From Escherichia coli (GTDB lineage: Bacteria; Pseudomonadota; Gammaproteobacteria; Enterobacterales; Enterobacteriaceae): DNA of 64,000 bases. Each line of letters opens with the position of its first letter. The first letter of the stretch is position 1. Of this stretch, positions 39,497 to 54,149 are shown piece after piece. Position numbers and translations under genes: made by a program. The notes beneath the pieces are model-generated. The model was not told the DNA's origin and made no database searches. It saw nothing but the letters and a program-made list of their open reading frames with translations. Location: NCBI RefSeq assembly GCF_003334305.1, contig NZ_QOWS01000021.1; one strand, written 5' to 3'.

Positions 39497-40579
39497 ATGA
39501 AAAAATTAACAGTGGCAATTTCTGCTGTAGCTGCATCAGTACTGATGGCGATGTCTGCTCAGGCAGCTGAAATTTATAATAAAGACAGTAACAAGCTGGA
39601 TCTGTACGGGAAAGTTAATGCTAAGCACTACTTCTCCTCTAATGATGCAGATGATGGTGATACTACTTATGCCCGTCTTGGCTTCAAAGGTGAAACCCAA
39701 ATCAACGATCAACTGACTGGTTTCGGTCAGTGGGAATATGAATTCAAAGGCAACCGCGCTGAATCTCAAGGTTCCTCCAAAGATAAAACCCGTCTTGCCT
39801 TCGCTGGCCTGAAATTCGGTGACTACGGCTCCATCGATTATGGCCGTAACTACGGTGTAGCATACGATATTGGTGCATGGACCGACGTTCTGCCAGAATT
39901 CGGTGGCGATACCTGGACCCAAACAGATGTATTCATGACTGGTCGCACCACAGGTGTTGCAACTTATCGTAACAACGACTTCTTTGGTCTGGTTGATGGC
40001 CTGAACTTTGCAGCTCAGTATCAGGGCAAAAATGACCGAAATGAAGTAACTGAAGCTAATGGCGATGGTTTCGGTTTCTCAACTACTTATGAGTATGAAG
40101 GATTCGGCGTGGGTGCAACCTATGCTAAATCTGATCGCACTAATAATCAGGTTATCTACGGTAACAACGGTCTGAATGCTTCTGGTCAAAATGCTGAAGT
40201 ATGGGCAGCTGGTCTGAAATATGATGCGAACAACATCTATCTGGCCACCACCTATTCTGAAACCCAGAACATGACTGTTTTTGGTAATAACCATATTGCC
40301 AACAAAGCACAAAACTTCGAAGCTGTTGCACAATATCAGTTCGACTTCGGCCTGCGTCCATCCGTTGCTTACCTGCATTCTAAAGGAAAAGACTTGGGTG
40401 TTTGGGGTGATCAGGACCTGGTTGAATATGTTGATGTAGGTGCAACCTATTACTTCAACAAAAATATGTCCACTTTTGTTGACTACAAAATCAACCTGAT
40501 TGATAAGAGCGATTTCACGAAAGCATCTGGCGTTGCTACCGATGATATCGTTGCTGTAGGTATGGTTTACCAGTTCTAA
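39497..40579 (+). CDS. nmpC: Prophage-encoded general porin (NmpC/Lc, OmpC/OmpF family), 360 aa, apparently intact
   Basis: Signal peptide, porin beta-barrel sequence ending …VGMVYQF; located between Q and the lysis genes as in DLP12. Confidence 0.9.
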
Positions 40580-42023: not shown

Positions 42024-42186
42024 GATTCCTCCTTGCTGCCAGTCGCAACCATTTTTTATCAACCAGGCTAGCGGTATATCCGAGCAGTGTTGGTATTTCG
42101 GATGGCTTCAGCTCAGGCTTACGCTTACGACGATTTGATACTCTGTAGATGTGCCCGTTCATGACACGAATAAGCGGTGTAGCCAT
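42016..42186 (-). CDS. ninE: NinE-like protein, 56 aa
   Basis: Manually translated ([56 protein letters not shown]); start overlaps the ybcN stop; coordinates approximate. Confidence 0.55.
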   Translation of the reverse strand: MATPLIRVMNGHIYRVSNRRKRKPELKPSEIPTLLGYTASLVDKKWLRLAARRNHG

Positions 42187-42641
42187 TACGCCTCCTGCTT
42201 ATCGCGCAGCTGCTGGTATTCACAGCTCTGCGGAATTGTCAGGTGGCAGCCGATATTCATCGCCCAGGCTTCGACTTTGCACAGGAAGATGTACATCTCG
42301 CCGGTTTCCAGCTCTGACGTATGGCGGAGGGATTGGACGGTGGTGACCTCGCCGGACACGACATCTACACGGTCTTTGCTTTCGTAGCCGAGATAGGTGT
42401 GCTTCATCGCGTCTTTGACCCACTCAGGCGTAGCGAAGGTCTTGCCGCGGGCGATGAGATATTCGCTGATCTCCGTGTACCACATGTGGCTGAGCGCGTT
42501 CTGCGACAGGCTGCGCTTCTCGCGCCACGGCTTAACCTGCAGGCGTAAGCATTGCCCGGCATCCAGCAATGGCTGAATCTGCTGGCCGATGGCCGCGAAG
42601 TTACCGCGATGGAGTTTGATGCCGTCTACTGGCAGAGTCAT
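42186..42641 (-). CDS. ybcN: YbcN-like nin-region protein, 151 aa
   Basis: Same size and position as DLP12 ybcN; function not assigned from sequence. Confidence 0.6.
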   Translation of the reverse strand: MTLPVDGIKLHRGNFAAIGQQIQPLLDAGQCLRLQVKPWREKRSLSQNALSHMWYTEISEYLIARGKTFATPEWVKDAMKHTYLGYESKDRVDVVSGEVTTVQSLRHTSELETGEMYIFLCKVEAWAMNIGCHLTIPQSCEYQQLRDKQEA

Positions 42642-42905
42642 ACGGCCTCCCTAACGGAAACCGCAGAATGCAGAAAATCGCAGGTGCATTTCTGCATCTG
42701 TGACAAGGTGATGAGTTCAGATTGTGGTCGCATTTAAGTCCCCTTAAATGCGCAGAAGTCACCGGAGTTGTTCAGGCTCCGATGAGAGGATTATGGCGGA
42801 TTGATTACGATAAATCAAAACTATCTTGAAGCCAAAACAGTGATCTTCGCTTTAAAAACCTTGTATACTTTCACCTAATCACAGCCAGAACTATGGATCT
42901 AACCA

Positions 42906-43283
42906 ATGACCAACAAAGAAAACAAAGATAAATATATTAACAAGTTCAAGAAAGAGCTTTCAAAATATATACAACCAACTGCTGGAGTGGACATTCAATT
43001 ATTTAACTCTAAGGATGGTGGTGGTGTAATTAAAGCCACTTTGAATAGAAGTGGAAAAAGAAAATCATCTATTGCAGGTAATTTTACTAAATTAGGTGAG
43101 GCAATTACCTCGAGTGGGCAGAGGGTTTTTGGTGGTGATCTATCAAATGTAAATTTTTACGGAACAAATACGATTTTTGATGGAGATACAATATTTTTAA
43201 TTAAATCACCTGATTCAGAGGAGTGGTCATCACAAAAAGCTTCCAAAGACGTAGAGGGCATCGTATTTGGAGGGAAAAAATGA
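42906..43283 (+). CDS. Hypothetical small soluble protein, 125 aa (first gene of an AT-rich reverse-oriented cargo pair)
   Basis: ORF on the strand opposite to the flanking early genes; Lys/Gly-rich; no recognisable motif. Confidence 0.5.
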   Translation: MTNKENKDKYINKFKKELSKYIQPTAGVDIQLFNSKDGGGVIKATLNRSGKRKSSIAGNFTKLGEAITSSGQRVFGGDLSNVNFYGTNTIFDGDTIFLIKSPDSEEWSSQKASKDVEGIVFGGKK

Positions 43284-43708
43284 TTAACATTACTACTAAG
43301 GATGGCACTCAAGTCAGTGGTGAAGTAAGAGATCTAGTAATTCTTCTTGAAACTGATGGAAAAACGGTGTCTGATTATTTGCAGCCAATCCCTCCCAAAA
43401 AAGATACACACTGGAGCATGATTTTCATTCCGGTAGCAATTTATATACTACTTAATCTTGTATACATTATTGCTCACCCATTATTTCCTGAAAAATATCT
43501 AAAAACATCAACATCTATATTTCTATTCATTTCCTTCATATTAAGTGCAATAGTAGCATATTTTGTTTTCCATAAGCATAAATCTGCCACTCTATCCATA
43601 TGCAGCTTAGTGTTCTTAGTGTTAATTGTAGGTGCTAACGTAGGGTTTATCAGTTACAGCGACCTAACACAAAAAGCGACGCAAAAATTAGATAGTTTGT
43701 CTAAATAA
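43280..43708 (+). CDS. Hypothetical membrane protein with about 3 TM helices, 142 aa
   Basis: ATG preceded by GGAGGG; ATGA overlap with the upstream gene; three hydrophobic stretches of about 20 aa. Confidence 0.5.
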   Translation: MINITTKDGTQVSGEVRDLVILLETDGKTVSDYLQPIPPKKDTHWSMIFIPVAIYILLNLVYIIAHPLFPEKYLKTSTSIFLFISFILSAIVAYFVFHKHKSATLSICSLVFLVLIVGANVGFISYSDLTQKATQKLDSLSK

Positions 43709-43786
43709 TTATGTTGCCATGCGAAGTATGCATGGCTGCATGTCTGCCTTCCATTTAAAATGGGCTAAGACCTATAACCCTAAATA

Positions 43787-44500
43787 TTATTCTTTATTAT
43801 CTTCTTTACCACTTCGCACCATCCCGTTCGACTTGTTGCGGTTGTACTTCGCCTGAAGCAGCTGGATTGGCGTCGGGCCATGCTCGGCAGCCGGTGCTGC
43901 AATCGCCCGGCGCACAGGCGGTACTGGTTTGCCCTCGGTGACGCGCCTCTCCCACATGTCCAGCAGATCGCCGGCTTCACGCGCCAGCTCACCATGCGTT
44001 AACTGGCGCTCTGTGCTGCGGTGGCGCAGTTCGACGCAGATGTGGTACATGACAGGCTGTGACCACGGGAAATGCTCGCTGGAAGTGAATTCGAAGGAAC
44101 GATTACGCCAATCCCAGTATTCGGTTATGACTTGGTCAACAGTGATACCTAACGCCCCGCCACTCTGCTTACACCACGCTACGAACTGGCCGGGCGACGG
44201 CAGGAATGGTCGCTCCTGTCGGCGGGCCACGCGCATTCCGGCGTTAACCTGTTCCATTGTGGTGATCCCGTTTTCCCGGAAAGCCAGAACCCACTGGCGG
44301 CGAATTTCGTTCAGTTCGTTCTGGTCACGGTTAGCCAGGCTCGCAGGGAAAGTTGCCAGCAACTGGCTGAATACACCGTTGATGATCTGCGCTACCTGCT
44401 GTACCTGCGGCTTTTCGTCGTACTGTTCCGGCATGTTGTTGGCGATCCGGCGCATCTGCTCACGGTCAAAGTTAACCATCTGTGCGGCGATGTTTTTCAT
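43787..44500 (-). CDS. P: Replication protein P (helicase loader), 237 aa
   Basis: N-terminal two-thirds match lambda P as recalled; the C-terminus diverges. Confidence 0.85.
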   Translation of the reverse strand: MKNIAAQMVNFDREQMRRIANNMPEQYDEKPQVQQVAQIINGVFSQLLATFPASLANRDQNELNEIRRQWVLAFRENGITTMEQVNAGMRVARRQERPFLPSPGQFVAWCKQSGGALGITVDQVITEYWDWRNRSFEFTSSEHFPWSQPVMYHICVELRHRSTERQLTHGELAREAGDLLDMWERRVTEGKPVPPVRRAIAAPAAEHGPTPIQLLQAKYNRNKSNGMVRSGKEDNKE

Positions 44501-45426
44501 AAATCCACCCCGTAAATCCAGTCAGTGTTCGTCAGGTCGAGTTTTGGTTTGCCGGCTGTCACGCCAGCCTGTTGCTTGTTTCGGTTGATTTCGAGCTGGG
44601 TCCACTTGTCGCGGAGTTTGGCCGGACTCAGCACGTTACCGGACCAGAAGTTGTCCTGGCAGGCCCAGCGAAACAGTACACACATGTCGCGGTGGTTACG
44701 TCCATCACGTTCACGCATCAGACGGATATCGTTAGCCCACCCTGCAAAATTCGGTTTTCTGGCTGATGGTGCGATAGTCTTCACCATGTCAAACATCCAC
44801 TCTGCGGCGGTCAGGTCTTCTGCTGTCCCCCACTTGCTGCCGTTCTGAATCGCAGCATCCGCTTTCACCACAGGAAGGTCGTTTTCTGGCAGGTCAGAGG
44901 ATTCGCCAGAATTCTCTGACGAATAAGGTTTTATATTGTCTTTTGTTAGTTTGTCTTTTGTGTTTACCGGATTCGGGTAAGTGCCTTTACCTGATTTGGG
45001 TAAACTTTTCTTACCTGATTCAGGTAAATTTACCTCTTTCAGGTAAACTTTATTTTTCTTACCTGATTCGGGTAATGTTGACCATTCACTGACCACATTA
45101 TTAATGCCTATATTCCGCCCGCTCTGAATAAAAATCCCACGCTTTACCAGAACACTTTTTGCAGCAGAACACTTGTGCGGCAATATCCCGGTCAACTCGG
45201 AAAGTTGCTCGTTGCTCACCCAATCCAGTTTTTTATTAAAGCCATATGTTTTGCGCATGACAGCCAGGAAGACCAGAAGCTGGTGCTGTGTTAATCCGGC
45301 CAGCATTACAGCTTCCAGCAACTCATTTGCAATGCGCGTATAACCATCATCGAGATCTGCCACGCGCGGCTCCTTTTGTGCCGCATCCGGCACAGGAAAA
45401 TTGAATATCTCAGCAGTGTTTGCCAT
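44497..45426 (-). CDS. O: Replication initiator O (contains ori iterons)
   Basis: ORF 44497-45516; ATG at 45426 has a GGGAGG SD and an N-terminus (MANTAEIFNF) like lambda O (MTNTAKILNF). Confidence 0.8.
   Translation of the reverse strand: MANTAEIFNFPVPDAAQKEPRVADLDDGYTRIANELLEAVMLAGLTQHQLLVFLAVMRKTYGFNKKLDWVSNEQLSELTGILPHKCSAAKSVLVKRGIFIQSGRNIGINNVVSEWSTLPESGKKNKVYLKEVNLPESGKKSLPKSGKGTYPNPVNTKDKLTKDNIKPYSSENSGESSDLPENDLPVVKADAAIQNGSKWGTAEDLTAAEWMFDMVKTIAPSARKPNFAGWANDIRLMRERDGRNHRDMCVLFRWACQDNFWSGNVLSPAKLRDKWTQLEINRNKQQAGVTAGKPKLDLTNTDWIYGVDL
44963..45075. repeat. ori: five ~17-bp iterons (ttacctgattcgggtaa-like) with a flanking AT-rich stretch, inside the O gene
   Basis: Direct repeats ttaccggattcgggtaa, ttacctgatttgggtaa, ttacctgattcaggtaa, ttacctctttcaggtaa, ttacctgattcgggtaa; coordinates approximate. 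Confidence 0.75.
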
Positions 45427-45512
45427 AATTCCTCCCGCAATGAGTGTGTTACGATTTGCACCTGAAAGTCGGTTCTGTTCCCGCAGACCGACTTTCGCCA
45501 TTTTTAAACCTG

Positions 45513-46058
45513 TCATATTGCCCCCAACATGGTGGTAACCATCGCCATCAATGGACCAGCCAGATCCGGGTCCACACGAAACATCGACACAATACCTTCA
45601 CTCATCTCCTTCAGTTTCTGGTGGCGTGGTGCGTTGAGAATGACAGCCTGTTTTGCCTCACTGAGTTCCTTTTCCATTTCAGCCAACCGAGTCATGAAGC
45701 TATCCTGCTCAACCAGGTAACCGCGATATTCCAGCGGTAGTACCGCCAGAATTGCCGGGGTCAGTTCACGCACGTTATTTCGGTATTTTTCAGAATCGAA
45801 TTTGTTATCGAGGAAGCGGAACAGCTTCTGGCGTGCACGGCTGACATCATCAGGGAAATCGATGGTGCCGCCGCCCTGTGCTCGATACTCATTCACAATG
45901 AGTGCGGCAACAACATCCTGATTATCTGCAGCCGACCAGGCGCGGACGGCATCACGGATTTTTTCGTGGCCTGGCACCTGTTTTGTTTGAGAACGATTTA
46001 TCACCGCAGTCGGGCTAAATCCGCTAGTCTGTTGGTATGTAAGTGGTTGCATAGTCAT
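45513..46058 (-). CDS. YdaT-family protein in the cII position, 181 aa
   Basis: Similarity to Rac YdaT as recalled (EYRAQGGG…LTPAILAVLP vs EYLRQGGG…LIPAILAILP). Confidence 0.6.
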   Translation of the reverse strand: MTMQPLTYQQTSGFSPTAVINRSQTKQVPGHEKIRDAVRAWSAADNQDVVAALIVNEYRAQGGGTIDFPDDVSRARQKLFRFLDNKFDSEKYRNNVRELTPAILAVLPLEYRGYLVEQDSFMTRLAEMEKELSEAKQAVILNAPRHQKLKEMSEGIVSMFRVDPDLAGPLMAMVTTMLGAI

Positions 46059-47242: not shown

Positions 47243-48382
47243 ATGGCAGCGGTTGAATTTCAATTGTCTAGGAAGATGATTGATTGGATAGCAAATTCTC
47301 AAGGAGTTTCTATCGAAACTCTTGCTGACCAAGTCATGCCCAAAAAGATTAATAAATTTCTTAACGGAGTGGTAAGTAAATCCGCAGCAGAAAAACTGGC
47401 AAAAATTGGAGGAATCCCTTTCGGTTTTTTATTTCTTGAAACGCCACCAACTCCAGCCAAACCCAAGATCCCTGACTTAAGGCAAGCTATAAATAGCCGT
47501 GAGTTAGGAAAAGATTTTTTTGATGTTTACTATGATATAGAATATAAACTTGAGTGGTACAAAGACTATTTAAGAGAAAATGGTAATGATGATCCACTCG
47601 ATTTTATTGGTAAATTTAAATTTAATAGAAAATTAAATTATAAGGTTGTTGCTACAGACATAGCAAACACAATACATTTTGATATACAAAAAGAGATAAA
47701 AAATGTCACTTTTGAGAGCTATTTTTCTAAAGTGGCAAAACTAATAGAAGACACTGGCGTATTAGTTTTCAAGAATGGTGTTGTGGGTAATAATAATAAA
47801 AGAAAACTTGACACGCGAGAGTTTCGTGGTTTCTGTATATCTGATAGCGTTGCTCCGATCATTTTTGTAAATAGCTCGGACGCGTTATCTGCGCAGGTAT
47901 TTACATTATTTCATGAGGTGGCTCATCTTTGGCTTGGAGTCGATGGAGTCTCTGGGTGGGACACAGAAAAAAACATAGAATCTTTTTGTAATAAAGTTGC
48001 TGCTGAAATCTTAATGCCTGATAATCTCTTCAAATCTTTCTGGCTTAATGCATCCAGCGATAATAATTATTATCGAGTAAAAGAGGTTTCTAAGTTATTT
48101 AAGGTTAGTGATTTCGCTTGTGCAATCAAAGCGTTACAATTAGATTTGATAGAAAGAAACACTTTGGAGATAATTAAAGATCAAGCTTACAATAAGCCCA
48201 AAAAAGAATCCAATGGTGGTTCTTTCTTTAACACATTACCTGTTCGTAACAGTCCAAAACTTACGAATATAATAATTTCCAAAGCAATGTCTCAACAATT
48301 ACCATTAAGGGAAGCAGGCGTACTGCTAAATGTAAAAGCAGATACAGTTGTTGAATTTTATAAAAAACGAGAATCTCTATGA
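47243..48382 (+). CDS. HTH-fused ImmA/IrrE-family (M78/DUF955-like) zinc metallopeptidase, 379 aa
   Basis: N-terminal XRE-like HTH; HEXXH motif (FHEVAHLW); AGGTGA SD; AT-rich; directly downstream of cI. Confidence 0.7.
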   Translation: MAAVEFQLSRKMIDWIANSQGVSIETLADQVMPKKINKFLNGVVSKSAAEKLAKIGGIPFGFLFLETPPTPAKPKIPDLRQAINSRELGKDFFDVYYDIEYKLEWYKDYLRENGNDDPLDFIGKFKFNRKLNYKVVATDIANTIHFDIQKEIKNVTFESYFSKVAKLIEDTGVLVFKNGVVGNNNKRKLDTREFRGFCISDSVAPIIFVNSSDALSAQVFTLFHEVAHLWLGVDGVSGWDTEKNIESFCNKVAAEILMPDNLFKSFWLNASSDNNYYRVKEVSKLFKVSDFACAIKALQLDLIERNTLEIIKDQAYNKPKKESNGGSFFNTLPVRNSPKLTNIIISKAMSQQLPLREAGVLLNVKADTVVEFYKKRESL

Positions 48383-48891
48383 TTCATAATGGAAAATTCT
48401 TAATTGATAGTAATGTCTTCATAGAGGCAAAAAACTTTGCATATAACTTCAATTATTGCAAAATATTTTGGGATTTTCTTCTCGCTTTACACATTAATGG
48501 TCTGATTTATAGCATTAATGCTGTAAAAAAAGAACTATGTGCAAAAGATGATCCATTGTGTAAATGGATTAAAGAAGAGTTACCATCATCATTCTTCGAA
48601 GATGAGCATAGTTCAATAGAAAATTATGCAAAGTTAATAAATTGGTCAACTAAATTAGATGTTACCGAAAAGGCAAAGTTTGATTTTGCAAGCCATGAAA
48701 AAGCAGATGCTTTTTTAATAGCCCATGCGATGACACATGGATATACTATTATTACCCATGAGAAACCATCCGGTGGCAAACCTAAAAAAAGAATAATGAT
48801 CCCGGATGCTGCTGCTTCTCACGGCGTTAAGACATTAACACTATATGAATTTCTTCCAAGATACGCTAGTCATAATTTTTCTTTGAAATAA
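48379..48891 (+). CDS. PIN-like (possibly DUF4411-family) putative nuclease/effector, 170 aa
   Basis: ATGA overlap with the upstream gene; N-terminal strand-Asp motif (FLIDSNVFIEA) typical of PIN folds; fold assignment is tentative. Confidence 0.5.
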   Translation: MIHNGKFLIDSNVFIEAKNFAYNFNYCKIFWDFLLALHINGLIYSINAVKKELCAKDDPLCKWIKEELPSSFFEDEHSSIENYAKLINWSTKLDVTEKAKFDFASHEKADAFLIAHAMTHGYTIITHEKPSGGKPKKRIMIPDAAASHGVKTLTLYEFLPRYASHNFSLK

Positions 48892-52695: not shown

Positions 52696-53038
52696 GGCCT
52701 GTCAGTTTCTTAAGATATCCAGACCAACCGCCACCAACTGGATACGAACAGGCCGCCTACAGGCAACACGTAAAGATCCAACCAAGCCAAAATCTCCTTA
52801 CCTCACAACACGGCAAGCCTGCATTGCGGCGCTTCAGTCTCCGCTGCATACTGTCCAGGTGAGCGCGGGTGATGGCATAACAGAGGAAAGAAAATGTCAC
52901 TCTTCCGCAGAAATGAAATATGGTATGCCTCGTATTCGCTCCCGGGCGGGAAACGAATTAAGGAATCTCTTGGCACAAAGGACAAGCGGCAAGCTCAGGA
53001 GTTGCACGACAAGCGAAAAGCAGAACTCTGGCGAGTAG
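52667..53038 (+). CDS. xis: Putative excisionase (Xis-like HTH protein); overlaps the int start
   Basis: ORF 52637-53038; internal Met [31 protein letters not shown] has an HTH; lies immediately upstream of int. Confidence 0.45.
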
Positions 53039-54057
53039 AAAAGCTAGGGGATTTACCTGATGTCACTTTTGAAGAGGCCTGCCTAAGATGGCTTGAGGAA
53101 AAAGCTGATAAAAAATCTCTCGATTCAGATAAAAGCCGGATTGAGTTCTGGCTTGAACATTTTGAGGGTATAAGGCTTAAAGATATCTCGGAGGCAAAGA
53201 TTTACTCTGCTGTAAGCAGAATGCATAACAGAAAGACGAAAGAAATATGGAAACAGAAAGTTCAGGCCGCCATCAGGAAAGGTAAAGAACTGCCTGTTTA
53301 TGAACCAAAGCCAGTATCAACTCAGACAAAGGCAAAGCATCTTGCCATGATAAAGGCCATTCTCCGTGCTGCAGAACGCGACTGGAAGTGGCTGGAAAAA
53401 GCGCCTGTCATCAAGATACCAGCGGTCAGAAACAAGCGAGTCAGATGGCTGGAAAAGGAGGAAGCAAAACGCCTTATTGATGAGTGCCCCGAACCACTGA
53501 AATCTGTCGTCAAGTTTGCGCTGGCAACTGGTCTGAGAAAGTCGAACATCATAAATCTGGAATGGCAACAAATCGACATGCAGCGACGAGTTGCCTGGGT
53601 GAATCCAGAAGAGAGCAAATCAAACCGCGCCATTGGTGTGGCGCTGAACGATACCGCCTGTAAAGTGTTGCGTGATCAAATAGGCAAGCATCACAAATGG
53701 GTGTTTGTACATACCAAGGCGGCTAAGCGAGCAGATGGAACATCAACGCCTGCGGTCAGGAAGATGCGCATCGACAGCAAGACATCATGGCTATCAGCTT
53801 GTCGTCGTGCAGGAATTGAAGATTTCCGTTTCCATGACCTCAGACACACCTGGGCAAGCTGGCTGATTCAGTCAGGCGTCCCATTATCAGTGCTTCAGGA
53901 AATGGGCGGATGGGAGTCCATAGAAATGGTTCGTAGGTATGCTCACCTTGCGCCTAATCATTTGACAGAGCATGCGAGGAAAATAGACGACATTTTTGGT
54001 GATAATGTCCCAAATATGTCCCACTCTGGAATTATGGAGGATATAAAGAAGGCGTAA
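52894..54057 (+). CDS. intD: Tyrosine integrase (IntD-like), 387 aa
   Basis: Matches DLP12 integrase as recalled; C-terminal catalytic region (…[15 protein letters not shown]…RYAHL); adjacent to tRNA-Arg. Confidence 0.9.
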
Positions 54058-54072
54058 CTGATTGAATTGTAA

Positions 54073-54117
54073 TGGCGCGCCCTGCAGGATTCGAACCTGC
54101 GGCCCACGACTTAGAAG
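54073..54117. repeat. attR core (3' 45 nt of argU), identical to 7529-7573
   Basis: Direct repeat seen in sequence. Confidence 0.85.
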
Positions 54118-54149
54118 GTCGTTGCTCTATCCAACTGAGCTAAGGGCGC
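54073..54149 (-). tRNA. argU: tRNA-Arg (anticodon UCU), argU; prophage attachment site
   Basis: Reverse complement reads GCGCCCTTAGCTCAGTTGGATAGAGCAACGACCTTCTAAGTCGTGGGCCGCAGGTTCGAATCCTGCAGGGCGCGCCA (77 nt, cloverleaf-compatible, CCA end); coordinates approximate. Confidence 0.9.

Follow-up and report, generated by a model that had tools for sequence, protein, structure and literature searches.

A candidate two-part phage-conflict cassette at the replication/nin boundary of a lambdoid prophage in Escherichia coli

A stretch of 64,000 nucleotides (nt) from the Escherichia coli assembly GCF_003334305.1 (contig NZ_QOWS01000021.1; the window, throughout, is this whole stretch) contains a complete lambda-like prophage of the DLP12 type, and between its genes ybcN and P lie two overlapping genes, here called ORF1 and ORF2 (ORF, open reading frame), which encode a small soluble protein and a three-helix membrane protein. 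Judged from sequence, the pair belongs to a broad family that is undescribed in the libraries we checked, with conserved gene order and coupling, a recurrent slot in lambdoid prophages and a nuclease-fused relative. The pair is supported as an independently acquired, reverse-oriented, AT-rich cassette. The interpretation that we favour, although we place it somewhat short of an even chance, is that of a two-part phage-conflict system, in which a cue sensed by ORF1 would release a membrane activity of ORF2 and infection would be aborted. A soluble partner combined with a membrane effector on a prophage is a familiar logic, and the first-pass annotation of this DNA had suggested exclusion or abortive infection as the role of the pair. 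This idea is still plausible, and it is indirectly supported by a 31%-identical pair in the same slot of another lambdoid prophage, by the fusion of an ORF1-like domain to an HNH nuclease and by published reports of accessory and defence genes in that slot (PMC13043305). The cassette, the cargo and the membrane topology described in that annotation all stand, while the hairpin that closes the cassette and the breadth of a family that is not restricted to prophages had been overlooked.

The two genes and their products

The cassette and its predicted signals are arranged as follows.

42906-43283, plus strand: ORF1, 125 amino acids (aa); RefSeq coding sequence WP_000182282.1, hypothetical protein
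43280-43708, plus strand: ORF2, 142 aa from the ATG at 43280; WP_000608370.1, hypothetical protein
43269-43274, plus strand: GGAGGG ribosome-binding site of ORF2, within the end of ORF1 and 5 nt upstream of the ATG; read from the sequence
43710-43742 extended, core 43716-43736, either strand: hairpin after the ORF2 stop, GCCATGC-GAAGTAT-GCATGGC
42864-42869, plus strand: candidate -10 element TATACT, about 37 nt before the ORF1 ATG, with a poor -35; predicted

The stop codon of ORF1 and the start codon of ORF2 overlap in ATGA (43280-43283), which implies translational coupling; this overlap and the GGAGGG that precedes the second gene had been noted in the first-pass annotation and are confirmed by the sequence and by the RefSeq coding sequences. 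The guanine plus cytosine (GC) content of the pair is 0.34 (0.25-0.28 at third codon positions, GC3), versus 0.57-0.58 in ybcN and P. The E. coli version is homologous to those of Klebsiella and Enterobacter over exactly 42905-43723, that is the two genes and the hairpin, and the flanking genes differ. Composition and this sharply bounded homology bear out the earlier proposal of AT-rich, independently acquired cargo. The ratio of nonsynonymous to synonymous substitution (dN/dS), calculated against copies 69-72% identical in DNA and with synonymous sites saturated, is 0.08-0.13 over both genes (0.08-0.11 for ORF1), and both ORFs are therefore genuine protein-coding genes under purifying selection. 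As in other morons, the GC content is deviant, the unit is present in some related phages and absent from others, and a hairpin stands at its 3' end; the promoter is a consensus-level prediction.

ORF1 had been described as rich in Lys and Gly, and these residues make up 13.6% and 12% of the protein, which has an isoelectric point of 9.5 and lacks any hydrophobic segment. Its AlphaFold model, of moderate confidence (predicted local distance difference test, pLDDT, 58.5; predicted template modelling score, pTM, 0.61), is an alpha/beta structure with the order helix-hairpin-(loop)-hairpin-helix. Across the ORF1 family G86, K100 and D115 are invariant and Y10, L22, G39, F84, T87, N88, I99 and W107 nearly so, a set of residues that seems unlike a catalytic site. 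The model also resembles, in Foldseek (expectation value, E, 1e-4 to 1e-3), a domain within adenine-specific DNA methyltransferases of 800-1100 aa and likewise a type I specificity-domain protein, with entries including A0A2Z5URX5, A0A1W9MJT0 and A0A0X3TF45. A hidden Markov model (HMM) search with the ORF1 alignment found no methyltransferase fusions, and the likeness may be one of fold to target-recognition domains only. In E. coli CV839-06 (NZ_CP025753.1, locus L022, 2707-4286) the insertion sequence IS1A interrupts ORF1 following about codon 48 and spares ORF2, and this strain is viable despite the disruption of ORF1; the IMG/VR locus L020 appears to end inside the same IS1-interrupted ORF1.

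The description of ORF2 as a protein of 142 aa with a short cytoplasmic N-terminus and three helices is one on which Kyte-Doolittle hydropathy and AlphaFold agree. Hydrophobic segments lie at residues 43-70, 74-100 and 100-129 (19-residue windows), and the model places helices at 44-68, 71-100 and 103-141 after a soluble N-terminus of about 40 aa, in which a domain of roughly 36 aa forms a beta-hairpin plus a helix; the protein also has a short amphipathic C-terminal tail. KK precedes the first transmembrane helix (TM1) and HKHK stands in the loop between TM2 and TM3, positions that by the positive-inside rule predict an N-in/C-out topology. As such, ORF2 is predicted to be an inner-membrane protein with a cytoplasmic N-terminal domain. 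Among close relatives this domain is the most conserved part of the protein (32 of the first 36 residues are invariant), as would be expected of a docking surface. The membrane helices hold an Asn59 and a GANVG motif that are invariant in the same relatives, and the presence of these conserved polar features suggests association between helices, and thus oligomers, or a pore.

In the first-pass annotation no motif had been recognised in either protein, and neither belongs to a described family of Pfam, NCBIfam or PADLOC or to one found by sequence in the PDB. Pfam and NCBIfam gave no match for ORF1 or ORF2, the Pfam hits of ORF2 being compositional membrane-helix noise, and none of 40 ORF1-family members tested matched Pfam. 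PADLOC-DB 2.0.0 (2023; systems described later are outside its scope) gave no hit for either protein at E<=1, and matched none of eight distant members of the pair family. The PDB sequence search returned no relatives of either protein. In PHROGs the two proteins fall into two unnamed families only, phrog_18061 and phrog_16940, listed with function unknown. The accessions WP_000182282.1 and WP_000608370.1 are absent from the searchable full texts and from the DefensePredictor supplements. By their hhalign probabilities ORF1 is not related to RexA (0.2%, and no PADLOC hit) or Ren (0.2%), nor ORF2 to RexB (1.4%, and no PADLOC hit), SieA (0.3%) or SieB (0.7%).

Distribution and the wider family

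A survey of 5426 complete E. coli genomes found the pair in 48. In 46 of these it is nearly identical, among them the uropathogenic E. coli (UPEC) strain 536, F11 and the probiotic strains M-17 and A0 34/86, and the other 2 have the Klebsiella-type version. The relatives returned by word-indexed protein searches were all close ones, from E. coli, Shigella, Enterobacter and Klebsiella, and IMG/VR likewise held close copies only; tBLASTn against GenBank phages and PLSDB plasmids gave no matches, and the GTDB species-representative genomes contained no copies. Both genes are present in every fetched locus that spans both positions.

The placement of these copies is conserved as well. In the window the pair is flanked by the following features.

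42186-42641, minus strand: YbcN, flanking gene
43762-43780, minus strand: terminator-like hairpin with a T-run, directly downstream of P, at the position of lambda tR2; from a consensus scan
43787-44500, minus strand: P, the replication gene that flanks the pair
44497-45516, minus strand: O, replication gene

ORF1 and ORF2 thus lie on the plus strand between P and ybcN and are antisense to the early operon, as the first-pass annotation had it when it placed them opposite to the flanking early genes (ybcN, P and O are all on the minus strand). Comparison of this junction across related prophages shows that the reversed pair recurs upstream of the nin genes. On the replication side of the pair the Klebsiella and Enterobacter prophages differ, with P, Ead/Ea22, DUF4752, HNH or unknown genes as the neighbour. 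The reverse orientation is constant, and so is a location just upstream of whichever gene opens the nin region (DUF1367, YbcN or NinB), which the pair abuts directly in most loci; other cargo intervenes in L007 (GCA_030132385.1). Klebsiella-type prophages have a separate ren gene in addition to the pair. The same placement is found for a much more distant copy, that of L039 (GCA_001546285.1), which is 31% identical to ORF1 and has a GC content of 0.33 versus 0.47 for its locus. This pair is again reverse-oriented in a lambdoid prophage, where it is flanked at one end by O, P and small accessory genes and at the opposite end by DUF1367-NinG-YlcG-Q. That two deeply diverged versions share slot and orientation argues that the placement is functional.

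More sensitive comparisons extend the family well beyond these prophages. Foldseek with the ORF1 model found about twenty stand-alone proteins of about 125 aa from unrelated bacteria, at 22-34% identity, one of them from Pseudenterobacter timonensis, which was also the origin of the only non-self match of ORF2. This was confirmed when the ORF1 alignment was searched as a HMMER profile against 1.84 billion representative proteins: 111 clusters of relatives passed E<=1e-3 and 30 passed E<=1e-10, almost all of them 120-135 aa long and aligned end to end. Nine distant relatives were examined in their contigs, and in all nine the ORF1 relative is directly followed by an ORF2-like gene of 125-138 aa, mostly with a 4-nt overlap. 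These partners have a soluble N-terminal domain of about 35 aa with the motif EGTPxEI..F....G.....[YF]L, and then three hydrophobic helices. An alignment of four of them matched the ORF2 alignment with an hhalign probability of 99.0% (E 8e-18, 116 columns). Homology of the partners together with their constant adjacency indicates a conserved module rather than a chance neighbourhood, and by these comparisons the pair is old and widespread, well beyond the Enterobacteriaceae and across very different bacteria and environments.

Two members of the family bear on its biology. In a 23-kb metagenome contig of the Joint Genome Institute (JGI; Ga0394676_56224, locus L036, 5516-6796) the pair lies in a small chromosomal islet upstream of rplL-rpoB and adjoins a PIN-like gene and a DUF4160/DUF2442 pair, so the module is not dependent on a prophage and is associated with toxin-antitoxin-like genes. 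A gene for a 161-aa putative lipoprotein or signal-peptide protein follows the pair in this islet. The other, P0104 (447 aa; one cluster, on short contigs), carries an HNH nuclease domain after an ORF1-like domain that spans residues 7-119, and only this HNH part matched PADLOC nuclease models. By analogy, the pairing of one small domain with a membrane partner in trans in some loci and with a nuclease in cis in P0104 would follow the modular pattern of many conflict systems. Among other members of the ORF1 family, P0083 (219 aa) has an N-terminal extension that resembles a signal peptide (MKLSACLFPLCFSAWFSASAHA), and P0116, P0132 and P0136 have other N-terminal extensions of about 100 aa.

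Proposed mechanism and competing explanations

In the phage-conflict interpretation the pair would be a translationally coupled moron at the replication/nin boundary that is expressed in the lysogen. ORF1 would be a cytoplasmic binding or regulatory subunit, probably docking on the N-terminal domain of ORF2, and ORF2 a small, probably oligomeric, three-helix inner-membrane effector. ORF1 would hold ORF2 inactive until a phage-derived cue is sensed, and the released ORF2 would then permeabilise or depolarise the membrane and the infection would be aborted. We infer expression in the lysogen, binding of ORF1 to ORF2, membrane activity and an anti-phage effect. The logic would be that of RexA/RexB and of abortive infection of the toxin-antitoxin type, from unrelated proteins. 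RexA/RexB are likewise a prophage-encoded gene pair with a cytoplasmic protein first and then a multi-pass inner-membrane protein of about 140 aa (RexB, 144 aa), and they share the proposed logic of a sensor and a membrane effector expressed in the lysogen, expression that for our pair is presumed. They differ in size and helix number (RexA 279 aa versus 125 for ORF1; four predicted helices in RexB versus three in ORF2) and in location: rexAB is part of the cI operon, next to cI, and the pair lies at the replication/nin boundary with a predicted promoter of its own.

The hairpin after ORF2 gives this cassette a defined end. Among copies that are about 70% identical in coding DNA its stem is invariant and its loop variable, the Klebsiella-type hairpin (L002) has a 15-bp stem at -27.5 kcal/mol with a z of -7.3, and L039 has a 15-bp hairpin of unrelated sequence at the same place. 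Hairpins thus follow the stop codon of ORF2 in three lineages. In L002, L007 and L039 the minus strand, the direction of the early operon, has a U-rich run after the hairpin, and the plus strand has an A-run. The hairpin is probably a terminator that separates the cassette from the convergent early operon; the second hairpin, at 43762-43780, belongs to the context of the cassette and is not necessarily part of it. No RNA family was found by Rfam in 42500-44000. Upstream, the candidate TATACT was not listed by the consensus promoter scan; Klebsiella-type copies align with it a TATAGT preceded by TGn (extended -10), and L039 has a candidate promoter TTGATT-16 nt-TATGAT at a similar distance from the gene.

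Taken with orientation, these elements suggest how the phage-conflict pair might be controlled. With its reverse orientation and the hairpin, the cassette would be protected from leaky, un-antiterminated early transcription in the lysogen, and on induction N-modified polymerase would read antisense through it and switch it off. In Staphylococcus aureus phages antisense nesting ties prophage defence to the phage life cycle (PMC11087260). The Tha/Ith 'noncontiguous operons' of those phages (PMC11087260) are alike in that defence-type cargo lies in or next to a phage operon, where life-cycle control is possible, and HepS of Gifsy-1 (PMC13043305) is alike in occupying the same slot downstream of the replication genes; both are HEPN nucleases, in contrast to a membrane protein pair, and antisense regulation of the pair is read from orientation and hairpins only. 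Reverse orientation and terminator nevertheless offer a concrete, testable model for how a prophage might shut down its own defence on induction. A bolder version, which we regard as doubtful though worth serious consideration, is a new and widespread anti-phage system in which a sensor domain of about 125 aa from a new fold family acts with a membrane effector in trans or with nucleases in cis, and which in lambdoid prophages is silenced at the tR2 position by N-antiterminated antisense read-through on induction. Were this so, antisense silencing would be a built-in switch for self-immunity.

Several observations weigh against the phage-conflict interpretation. The apparent signal peptide of P0083 does not fit a strictly cytoplasmic ORF1-like domain, the tail of the hairpin is weak on both strands in the window, out of line with the proposed U-tract pattern, and the same data are compatible with a toxin-antitoxin or addiction role. 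In that alternative ORF2 would be a membrane toxin and ORF1 its antitoxin, and the pair would stabilise its carrier prophage or island with no dedicated anti-phage role. The layout is that of type II operons: two overlapping, translationally coupled genes with a 4-nt overlap, a small soluble protein upstream, a potentially toxic protein downstream, and strict co-inheritance of the two. Such modules lie on mobile elements and beside other toxin-antitoxin genes, as the L036 copy does beside PIN and DUF4160/DUF2442 genes, and the occurrence of the pair outside prophages points the same way. This is in contrast to the domain content, since ORF1 has no DNA-binding or other recognisable antitoxin domain and neither protein belongs to a known toxin family (by Pfam and NCBIfam, no antitoxin DNA-binding or known toxin domain of type II systems was found in the pair or in the 40 ORF1-family members), and a fusion of the ORF1-like domain to HNH would be unusual for an antitoxin. 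The viability of CV839-06, with ORF1 interrupted by IS1 and ORF2 intact, speaks only weakly against an antitoxin role, and it leaves the models undecided because the insertion is probably polar on ORF2. We consider a plain toxin-antitoxin pair, the main rival, rather unlikely. Many toxin-antitoxin modules also act in phage defence, and as such this alternative overlaps the phage-conflict model and is not cleanly separable from it.

Entry exclusion and accessory roles are less well supported than either of these. Prophages commonly exclude other phages by means of small inner-membrane proteins, and P22 SieA, HK97 gp15 and T4 Imm block DNA injection by incoming phages, so that ORF2, as a small prophage protein predicted to lie in the inner membrane and to have its own transcription unit, could stop injection with ORF1 as an accessory and with survival of the cell. 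Known entry blockers are mostly single membrane proteins. P22 SieA, a prophage exclusion membrane protein (PMC10883804), and SieB are similarly small inner-membrane proteins of lambdoid or P22-like prophages with independent transcription units, but they are single, non-homologous genes (hhalign probabilities for ORF2 below 1%), in contrast to a pair with an obligatory conserved cytoplasmic partner. This partner, the nuclease fusion and the copies outside prophages would be better suited to intracellular sensing, and we judge entry exclusion quite improbable. A role outside phage conflict is improbable as well; this would be lysogenic conversion, such as membrane stress tolerance, bacteriocin immunity or host interaction, or control over when the prophage itself lyses the cell or replicates. 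Host fitness is served by lambdoid morons that include bor/iss, lom and an OmpC-like porin, and this prophage has such a porin gene (39497-40579); three-helix membrane proteins of the size of ORF2 include the immunity proteins of pore-forming colicins, and colicin-like and immunity-like genes share the slot with the pair in L007. However, the spread of the pair over very different bacteria and environments argues against a trait of one host niche, and the HNH fusion would not suit such a role. An N-in topology with a 40-aa cytoplasmic domain is unlike that of class I holins, and a pair in reverse orientation is unlikely to be co-expressed with the lysis programme.

If the pair is a defence or abortive-infection system, as we tentatively favour, it would add a protein family that is missing from the defence catalogues checked, the replication/nin boundary would be a defence slot reused by different versions of one module, and the ORF1-like domain, whether alone, with a membrane partner or fused to HNH, would be a new sensor or adaptor domain. 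If it is only a toxin-antitoxin pair, it would still be a new family with a small membrane toxin. Its presence in the well-studied UPEC 536, in F11 and in the probiotics M-17 and A0 34/86 makes the pair easily testable.

Prophage setting and neighbouring cargo

The integrase gene of the prophage (52894-54057) adjoins tRNA-Arg(TCT) (54073-54149), and the early-right operon on the minus strand has the order O, P, YbcN, NinE, YbcO, RusA, YlcG, QuuD. The slot of the pair corresponds to the ren/tR2 position in lambda and, in P22, to ninA, which lies between the replication gene and ninB and for which a lambda-like terminator is annotated. At the P/ybcN junction K-12-type DLP12 remnants have a breakpoint with other cargo or deletions, and the ybcN flank itself is found in 2778 of the 5426 complete E. 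coli genomes. Non-coding DNA upstream of ybcN (42642-42820) shares homology with the ylcH region of K-12 DLP12 and also matches the NinB-adjacent region of L007 (85% over 166 nt), which places the left edge of the cassette between 42820 and 42905. In lambdoid prophages accessory genes are described as usually lying downstream of the replication genes, a region from which the HepS defence came (PMC13043305). Between NinB and the pair, L007 (3297-4980) has two further genes, one colicin-like (377 aa, with a weak Pfam match to Colicin) and the other immunity-like (174 aa, with a weak match to Colicin_im), and the slot is thus able to collect several units of cargo.

The window contains a second AT-rich two-gene insert on the plus strand at 47243-48891 (GC 0.32-0.34), directly downstream of the cI-like repressor gene and so in the rexAB position. 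It encodes an ImmA/IrrE-type metallopeptidase (379 aa) whose gene overlaps that of a DUF4411 protein (170 aa); the peptidase has weak PADLOC matches to the CapP and RmrA models (best E 1e-14) and the DUF4411 protein has none, and the insert looks like another candidate defence or regulatory module. The porin gene at 39497-40579 (plus strand) is OmpC/NmpC-like and intact, with the Q antiterminator on one side and the lysis genes on the other, and a YdaT-toxin-domain gene (45513-46058, minus strand) occupies the cII position beside a Cro-like regulator; DLP12- and Rac-type prophages are known to have these features.
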